Positions 7,901-10,137 of a stretch of 64,000 bases of DNA are shown here, piece after piece (position 1 is the stretch's first letter; every line of letters begins with the position of its first letter). Made by a program: the position numbers and the translations under genes. The notes below the pieces were generated by a model. That model was not told the origin of the DNA. It saw only the letters and a list, made by a program, of their open reading frames with translations, and did no database searches. This DNA comes from Stegostoma tigrinum. Lineage: Eukaryota. The DNA lies in NCBI RefSeq assembly GCF_030684315.1, contig NC_081391.1:13121342-13185341 (forward strand), written 5' to 3'.

Positions 7901-10137
7901 TTCCCCATTTTTACCAGTTCTTCAAACATCAGTCTCAGGAGAAGCGGGAACATGCAGAGAAGCTGCTGAAATTCCAGAATCAGCGTGGAGGCAGAGTCTT
8001 CCTCCAGGATGTGAAGGTTGGAGTTGGGTGGGGAATGGGATGGTAATGGCTGCTCTTGTGGTGTGGTTTCAAGTCAGTGACAAGGTTTTCATTTGAGTCA
8101 AAACTTTGTTCAACCTGTTTGATCTCCTTTTTGAATCCAGTGGAGAAAGAAGCCCTTTCGCCCACCATGTCTATGCTGACCCCACAAACACTAAACAACA
8201 TTAATCCCACTTACCTGCCCTTGGTCCACAGGCCACTGTCCTGGCACTAAGTACTTGTCCAGCTGGACCTAAAACTGATCTGGAGTAGCTGACTCCACCA
8301 CCATTCAAACATTTAGGTGGTTCATCTCATTTCTAACAACCCCTCGGAGGAGGGTGAAGAGAAAGTTTCCTCCAATCCCCTCTAACCTGCTTACTCCACA
8401 AACCTGGTTTCTCTCTGGGCTTGGTGTCTGCCATGGGGAAGACATTCCATCAACTGGCCACTCTCTATTCTTCAATAATTACATCAGGTCACTCCCTCAG
8501 CCGTTCCTGCTCCACAGAAAATCCCAGCCTATCTAACCTCCAATCAAGGGATCTTGGGCAACAGCCTGGGGAACCTCACCAGCTTCCCCCTGCAGTGCCA
8601 TCCTGTCCAGGTGACTGGTGAGGCCAAAGAGGGAATAATGTGGTGACTAGAAGAACAAACTGTGACCAGACTGGTCCCCTTCCTGTTCCACCACACCAAA
8701 CTAATAGAGGTTGCTTGCCCTCTGTCACTGTTACACCCTGTTGACCTTGTCTGAACTTTGAGGGATCTATGGTTGTGGGCCTTTCTTAACTGTTAGCAGC
8801 ACAACACACTTTGCAAACACCTCGCTGTCCCTTTGATGAATTAAATAGCTGTGATGTTTCTGATCATCCTGCTCAGGCATGTATGAAGCCACCAGCACAA
8901 GTGGTACTTGAACCTTGGCCTTGTCAGCCAGAGACAGGGGCACTACCACTGTACCATGACAGCATTTAGGCTTCACTTGTGAATATCCTCACAATTCCAT
9001 CAGATGGACCCTGATGCAAATCTTGTCATTATCCCCCACAATGACCTGTTATTCAACTTCCTCCTTCAGATCAAGGACCGACAGGCAAGGTGAAAGCAAT
9101 TCTGAAGGAACTGTTCTTCAGCTGTGCTCCAGGGCTGCCTCAGGGGTGAGCAGTGTTCTCAGTGCTAGGGACACAGGTTTTGATCTGGCCTCTGGTGAGG
9201 GACTGGTGTTTACATGTCCTCCCCATGTCTGCGTTGGTGTCCTCATAGTATAAGAGGATTGGCCATCTGAAACGCAGGGTTACAGGAATAGGGTGGGAGA
9301 AGGATGGGTTGGGTTCCTCTTCAGAGCAGTTACAGACTGATCCACGTTGTAGAGATTCTGAAGCTTAACTGTCCTTCTTTCCTTCCTCCAGAAGCCAGAG
9401 AGGGATGAGTGGGGTAACAGCCTGCAGGCAATGCAGGTTGCCCTGGATCTGGAGAAGAATGTGAACCAGAGTTTGTTGGATCTACACCAACTCGCCACTG
9501 CCCAGACTGACCCTCATGTAAGCTTCACCTCCTCATTGACTTCACTGCTAGGCCCTCAGGGCAACACCTTCATTGGTTGGTCTTTTGTGGATTAGAAATT
9601 CAGTTAGACTTTGTTTTTGTGCAGATGACATGGATCACTTCAGATCCATAGTGATTACAAAATCATTGCTGAGCAGTTGAGTCCAATTATGTATTTTAAC
9701 TTGTAAACCTGTGGGGAGGACTGAGGGGATATTGGTGACTGAATTCTCATTCAGGACCACTGCAGTGGAATGACTTTTATCCATCACAAGTCAACTCTGC
9801 TCCAGTAAATAAACAGCAAGATGAAGCAGCTAAAAAGCAGTTGTCCTCTTTGCACAATTTCTCCAGGCGTTGGCTCTAGTCATCCCTGACAATCTCCCTC
9901 CATATGCACGTTTTTCAGTGGGGATTCTGAAGTTGTCTTGGGTAGTGTTAATGTACCAAGTGTCATATTCCTCTGTTGCAGCTGTGTGATTTCCTGGAGA
10001 CTCACTATTTGGATGAGGAGGTGAGGATCATCAAGCAACTCGGGGACTACATCACCAACCTGAAGCGCCTGGGAGCCCCTGAGAATGGGATGGGAGAGTA
10101 CCTGTTTGACAGGCTCTCCCTGGAGGACAGCAGTTAG
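4941..10137 (+). CDS. Ferritin subunit, copy 1 (type A), intact 176 aa: exons 4941-5042, 7870-8016, 9392-9517, 9982-10137
   Basis: [176 protein letters not shown]. All introns GT-AG; AATAAA at 10265-10270. Confidence 0.95.
5532..6328 (+). mobile_element. 5'-truncated, degenerate CR1 LINE in intron 1 of copy 1
   Basis: Fragments translate to [14 protein letters not shown] and [13 protein letters not shown] (CR1 ORF2 C-terminus) with frameshifts; similar to the longer CR1 at 12628. Confidence 0.85.

Follow-up and report, generated by a model that had tools for sequence, protein, structure and literature searches.

A ferritin gene that is repeated in tandem along a shark contig and carries lysine at position 62 of the ferroxidase centre raises the question of what kind of chain it encodes; namely, whether it is the shark counterpart of the tetrapod light (L) chain, an intermediate on the way to one, or a subunit that sharks evolved separately. 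We analysed a 64-kb stretch of DNA (hereafter, the window) together with the 3.2-Gb genome in which it lies. The window is part of a large array (array A), and another array, whose ferroxidase centre is intact (array B), is found elsewhere on the same contig (C50). The reading that we favour, and to which our sequence comparisons give about an even chance, is that array A encodes a convergent, ferroxidase-dead partner chain for array B, probably in oocytes, the split having been separate from that of tetrapod L.

Seven ferritin genes in the window are complete, each with four exons, and an eighth copy is represented by exons 3 and 4; all are on the + strand and have phase 0 introns (Table 1). 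Open frames of 176 amino acids are present in 6 of the 7 complete copies, including copy 6, which has a GC donor 3′ of exon 3, lacks the upstream promoter block and encodes Arg at position 60. The copies are recent duplicates (mean dS of 0.09), and the occurrence of Lys62 in all seven therefore reflects one inherited event and not seven. Higher-order blocks with 94–96% identity are also duplicated (1–4895 and 59109–64000; 11618–19509 and 37674–45549; 7428–11172 and 33923–37672), pointing to recent unequal crossing-over within the array. Intron 1 of copy 7 includes a C-rich tandem repeat (54577–56751, period of about 405, 4.2 copies) that reaches an N stretch (56282–56692), and an 800-base repeat, probably a LINE fragment, is dispersed through the window (5532–6327, with further copies near 13255, 21453, 32236 and 39297). 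Two hairpin-like intronic stretches (53907–53987 and 47770–47855) have Rfam microRNA matches below threshold (48.6 bits versus a gathering score of 61).

Table 1 Ferritin gene features of the window, in window coordinates
Feature	Position	Strand	Details
Copy 0, partial	855–1599	+	Exon 3 855–980, exon 4 1444–1599; Glu141
Copy 1 proximal promoter block	4770–4855 (limits approximate)	+	Putative promoter, similar to array B promoters; without IRE
Copy 1 promoter motifs	4847–4852 (TATAAA)	+	Inverted CCAAT and E-box CAGCTG immediately upstream
Copy 1 exon 1	4941–5042	+	Lys at FTH1 Arg23 position 4995–4997; Glu27 codon 5010–5012
Copy 1 exon 2	7870–8016	+	Lys62 codon 7942–7944 (AAG); His65 codon 7951–7953
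Copy 1 exon 3	9392–9517	+	Glu107 codon 9452–9454; includes His118
Copy 1 exon 4	9982–10137	+	Glu141 codon 10018–10020 (GAG); Ile144, Leu173, stop
Copy 1 polyadenylation signal	10265–10270	+	AATAAA
Copy 2, intact, 176 aa	14535–18695	+	Exons 14535–14636, 16397–16543, 17950–18075, 18540–18695
Copy 3, broken	23916–28570	+	Exon 2 frameshift (27203–27347, 145 nt); exon 4 stop lost; without TATAAA
Copy 4, intact, 176 aa	31637–36632	+	Exons 31637–31738, 34368–34514, 35888–36013, 36477–36632
Copy 5, intact, 176 aa	40577–44735	+	EHVEK variant; exons 40577–40678, 42436–42582, 43990–44115, 44580–44735
Copy 6, open 176-aa frame	46761–51491	+	Exons 46761–46862, 49301–49447, 50778–50903, 51336–51491
Copy 7, intact, 176 aa	53699–60708	+	Exons 53699–53800, 58310–58456, 59967–60092, 60553–60708

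The encoded protein belongs to the 24-mer ferritin family (PF00210), with a four-helix bundle and an E helix in approximately 176 amino acids, high identity to solved ferritins, the vertebrate four-exon layout and the three-fold channel residues. An alignment-based model predicts a normal ferritin subunit fold (pLDDT of 87, TM of 0.95 to frog M) and was used instead of a single-sequence prediction, which reached a pLDDT of only 42. The first-pass annotation had singled out the Lys62 and Glu141 codons of copy 1, and both are as it claimed: AAG is found in all seven exon 2 sequences and GAG in all eight exon 4 sequences, and ungapped alignments to solved H chains uphold the assignment of the lysine to position 62. 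Retention of Glu27, His65 and the three-fold channel residues (H118, C130, D131 and E134) also holds for all six full-length copies tabulated, as does that of Y34 and E107; the broken copy 3 is left out of the residue tables and of dN/dS. The proposed helix B motif, QS(Q/R)EK(R/Q)EHAEK, matches six of the seven exon 2 sequences and differs in copy 5, and the assignment of Asp or His to position 57 and Gln to position 60 stands apart from the Arg in copy 6. The cavity residues Glu61 and Glu64 are kept, and the DEE/EEE of helix D is matched by human L and by frog M mutants in solved structures.

Against the full H-chain ligand set (E27, Y34, E62, H65, E107 and Q141), array A has Lys62 and Glu141, and it lacks the intact ferroxidase centre of M chains. 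Activity of the Lys62 chains has likely been lost, as E62K alone is reported in a review to be sufficient to abolish ferroxidase activity, as in FTHL17 (PMC7760355); a ferritin mutant with E62K/H65G is reported to be inactive as well (PMC6929972). The match to tetrapod L is partial. Lys62 with a retained Glu107 agrees with L, as does Glu141 in the window, yet Glu is absent from two of the four L-type nucleation positions (57, 60, 61 and 64), with His or Asp at 57 and Gln at 60, so an L-like nucleation role of the predicted protein is doubtful. The FDRLSL C terminus, present in all eight exon 4 sequences as claimed, does not hold up as an L mark, because all 10 rebuilt genes of ferroxidase-intact array B encode Leu173 (FDRLTL in 9, FDKLTL in 1) and lamprey ferritin also has it. 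Nor is the H/L mosaic unusual, as its four residues also co-occur in some amphibian L chains (see below).

Array A spans 12.99–14.40 Mb of C50 as a 1.4-Mb tandem array of + strand genes. Its exon-2 matches number at least 138, a floor given that 150 of 445 exon-2 candidates were scored and 138 of these fell in the array. Stops occur in 5 of the 138 matches. A Lys62 DNA pattern has 106 matches in the genome, and all of those among the 100 listed fall in array A. Array B is located 5.5 Mb away at about 19.95–21.55 Mb, and all ten of its rebuilt genes encode the complete site (E27, E62, H65, E107 and Q141); the corresponding Glu62 pattern has 145 genome matches, with none within 12.99–14.40 Mb among the 100 listed, which are sorted by contig and position. 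Arrays A and B have copy numbers of similar magnitude, and both are under purifying selection (dN/dS of 0.26 in array A and 0.27 in array B), which indicates that the protein encoded by array A is being preserved. Carpet sharks supply the nearest named proteins, with identity over exon 2 of up to 100%, and the same chain type is clustered in other sharks, with 76, 43 and 19 members. Some database entries are oddities (P0002–P0005, P0029, P0104 and P0217), being fusions that join exons of neighbouring copies, or ferritins of vertebrate type assigned to bacteria or to an incorrect animal.

An iron-responsive element (IRE) was found at 2 of 13 loci scanned. One is an FTH1-type gene on C20, beside a bestrophin gene, that falls in the H clade; the other, at C50:21.6 Mb, adjoins array B and falls in a shark M-type clade. 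No IRE was detected in the window by Rfam, either at the gathering threshold or at E values of up to 5, and none in the array A or B genes scanned. Array A does not show the H-chain combination of 5′ IRE, bestrophin neighbour and H-clade placement, nor does it have the 5′ IRE that mammalian FTL carries. We consider it likely that array A works like an L chain, but it falls outside L membership on the IRE and the nucleation residues. A profile of the array A promoter found 3 of the 11 array B promoters searched (E = 6 × 10−5 to 0.0024, below 0.01) and neither IRE gene; in the reverse search of the window, the array B profile found no array A promoter. Both arrays encode Lys at the FTH1 Arg23 position, at which the IRE genes keep Arg. 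Arg23 of FTH1 is reported to be required for NCOA4 binding and ferritinophagy (PMC4592949), and its replacement could make an iron store in eggs turn over more slowly. On C2, an A-type copy without introns (Lys62 and Glu141; identity of 80% to A and 71% to B) implies that array A was at some time transcribed in the germline or early embryo. With this A-type copy, the intronless retrocopies on other contigs (L031–L036) comprise four from array B and one from the IRE-bearing M gene.

One clade (support of 100/99) unites the Lys62 proteins of a sevengill shark, a houndshark, two mackerel sharks and carpet sharks, and by this phylogeny Lys62 is old in sharks. Position 141 is Gln in 6 of 6 non-carpet members and Glu in 10 of 10 carpet-shark database rows, for which the simplest reading is that Glu141 arose late and separately from tetrapod L. 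Together these proteins make up a natural series, with K62/Q141 in houndshark and mackerel sharks, K62/R65 in sevengill and K62/E141 in carpet sharks. Lys62 is absent from the 16 sawshark and 5 batoid rows, and such a partner may not be universal. E62K requires one base change and recurs in FTHL17 and in a B-type copy of Heptranchias (sevengill), and we regard an origin of the shark Lys62 independent of tetrapod L as probable. Independent losses of ferroxidase ligands recur across ferritins (P0034, P0181, P0205, P0211, P0213, P0148 and P0179): sevengill B-type copies have K62 or N62, turtle M-type chains Q62 and H62, and two rays K27 or W27 with R65.

The alternative that bears most directly on this history holds that array A is the shark orthologue of tetrapod L, with a single origin of Lys62 that predates the divergence of sharks from bony vertebrates, the lineage then disappearing from ray-finned fish and sharks keeping an early L state. 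We consider this unlikely, at perhaps one chance in a handful. Arrays A and B group together with support of 84/62 when all columns are used and 98/87 without the eight trait columns, in which case L joins bony-vertebrate M (95/85). Bootstraps favour A+B over A+L by 874 versus 82 of 1,000 on all columns and by 978 versus 0 without the trait columns, a removal that biases against A+L; two divergent batoid rows were left out of all trees, and the mollusc outgroup was left out of the trait-column-removed tree, of its AU test and of these bootstrap counts. Synonymous divergence is 0.69 between A and B versus 1.2 to the IRE-bearing M gene, and A and B share promoter sequence without the IRE of mammalian FTL. 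However, A+L survives the AU test either way (P = 0.438 on all columns, P = 0.203 with the trait columns removed), and A and L alone have four columns in common (I8, L37, S52 and K62) compared with one (22) for A and B alone. Database entries for amphibian and reptile L chains carry the label ‘oocyte isoform-like’, which would suit orthology, and so would the genomic neighbourhood: C50 carries RUVBL2 (18.55 Mb), BAX (26.43 Mb), SNRNP70, and Tub-family and DHDH-like genes, and a cytohesin gene flanks array A on the left, all of which are neighbours of FTL at human 19q13.33. Human FTL lies between BAX and GYS1/RUVBL2, whereas array A is outside the BAX–RUVBL2 interval and the IRE-bearing M-type gene and array B are inside it. 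A glycogen synthase search, a stricter first look, placed matches at C20:18.98–19.04 Mb and C33:46.0 Mb and none on C50, unlike the human FTL–GYS1 arrangement. No identifiable gene was found on the right flank of array A, where a 580-residue open frame (L086:4311–6050, +) has no Pfam match. Of the first-pass proposal that these genes have neither classic function or show how an L-type chain arose, the loss of ferroxidase function is the part that survives, as a likely one; an intermediate towards tetrapod L is not supported, given the missing Glu141 in non-carpet sharks and trees that favour an origin within sharks. Array B, which provides the probable functional setting, was out of view for that proposal.

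A different possibility, slightly less probable again, is that the A chain is ferroxidase-dead without being a mineralizing partner, either as an FTHL17-like protein or as a bulk egg storage protein, forming a cage by itself or serving a purpose unrelated to iron. The absence of nucleation Glu57 and Glu60, the 5.5 Mb that separate the two arrays, and the precedent of FTHL17, with its E62K, other ligands kept and reported germ-cell expression (PMC7760355), are all compatible with this; against it are the retained iron-entry and cavity residues, a dN/dS matching that of the intact array, and the similar copy counts. That the site is remodelled and still active, with Glu27, His65, Glu107, Glu141 and Glu61 binding iron in the absence of Glu62, seems improbable. 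Across four shark orders, every A-clade row that includes exon 1 has Glu27 and most rows have His65, and Glu141 would bring an extra carboxylate, with Glu also at this position in the solved frog M mutants. The reported inactivity of the E62K and E62K/H65G proteins argues the other way, as does the replacement of His65 by Arg in two of the six non-carpet Lys62-clade proteins. We give very little credence to the explanation that array A consists largely of pseudogenes in decay or stems from misassembly. Copy 3 is broken, copy 6 lacks its promoter block and a few exon-2 matches hold stops, but the open frames and dN/dS reported above, the 4–6% differences between duplicated blocks and the clusters of the same chain type in other sharks are at odds with it.

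Under the favoured reading of array A as a dead partner chain for array B, Lys62 would deprive the di-iron site of its bridging ligand and pair with Glu107, which array A keeps; such a pairing is known from L chains. Fe(II) would enter through the intact three-fold channels and be oxidized on B chains, with which A chains would co-assemble in oocytes, making the cage more stable and able to hold more mineral. Amplified and freed of the IRE, the genes would permit mass synthesis whatever the iron status of the cell, stocking iron for the embryo. Historically, an IRE-less duplicate on the FTL/M chromosome may have split into A and B, followed by Lys62 early in sharks and by Glu141 and Ile144 later in carpet sharks. 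Efficient loading of ferritin is reported to require H ferroxidase and L nucleation (PMC11719527), and ferritin in amphibian and snail eggs is cited in PMC1488847. A weak, tissue-blind hint of transcription comes from sequencing runs, in which an exon 4 contig of run X1 (guessed to be RNA, from another organism) continues directly from where exon 3 ends; the joint also occurs at low depth in the DNA-like runs X3 and X5. A contig of run X2 ends in what we take to be a cDNA adaptor.

Ferritin arrays and their ovary expression have already been reported in other sharks. We found no residue-level account of shark ferritins in the open PMC and bioRxiv literature, in which the catshark and dogfish papers contain nothing relevant; relative to that literature, the new elements are the residue-level split into dead and intact IRE-free arrays and the stepwise order of K62 and then E141. 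L chains are generally regarded as particular to tetrapods, the ferritins of fish being of the H and M types. We tentatively suggest, with a little less than even confidence, that sharks invented the egg H/L division of labour a second time, through two IRE-free, co-regulated arrays of more than 100 genes each that would supply an oxidizing and a dead chain at near-equal dosage, the L-like substitutions having been added stepwise (Lys62 first, in early sharks, and then Glu141 in carpet sharks). If so, the shark dead chain is a living series on which to test how an L chain is made, and a separate origin in sharks would show the heteropolymer design and the E62K route to be repeatable. The K62/Q141, K62/R65 and K62/E141 series lends itself to direct assays of the order in which the changes came and of what each one does, and the dead/intact split gives a testable meaning to the reported ovary-specific expansion of shark ferritins. 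Heavy, middle and light database labels on shark ferritin genes do not track catalytic residues.

The closest comparison is with the Greenland shark, for which a preprint reports 155 FTL and 179 FTH1 copies, with 104 FTL and 118 FTH1 in the largest cluster, ovary-specific expression of that cluster and conservation of the clusters in white shark (bioRxiv 10.1101/2024.09.09.611499). Like the arrays described here, the Greenland and great white shark clusters are very large and of two labelled kinds; the main text of the preprint gives gene labels only, without mention of ferroxidase, residue states, IRE status or a tree. We infer that the FTL-labelled copies are of the Lys62 type. A second Greenland shark genome report is also said to address the ferritin expansion.

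Amphibian L chains, labelled as light chain, oocyte isoform, have K62 and E141 in 33 of 33 matches (leaving out P0279, an H/M-type chain), and in 3 of the 33 (Xenopus tropicalis, Mantella and Pyxicephalus) also E27 and H65, a set found in 0 of 18 reptile and 0 of 3 mammalian L chains. The X. tropicalis protein (P0258) also shares Ile144 and Leu173 with array A. Amphibian L chains differ from array A in having mostly Glu at 57 and 60 and in forming a separate, fully supported clade, and reptile L chains share His57 with array A copies. Mammalian FTL, which is somatic, resembles array A in K62, E107, E141, L173 and, broadly, chromosome neighbourhood, but has lost E27 and H65 (3 of 3). FTHL17 is an intronless gene, unlike array A, the genes of which have four exons, lie on the FTL/M chromosome and fall outside the H clade. 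Human FTHL17 is described as FTH1-like and X-linked, with E62K, the other ligands conserved except for E61D, and no ferroxidase activity (PMC7760355), and array A, Q141E apart, shares E62K with the other ligands kept. Frog and fish M ferritins are the closest solved structures (approximately 70% identity, TM of 0.95), and database names of the shark genes read ‘middle subunit-like’. Unlike array A, these M chains keep E62 and Q141, and the IRE-bearing M-type gene of the shark is a separate locus at C50:21.6 Mb.
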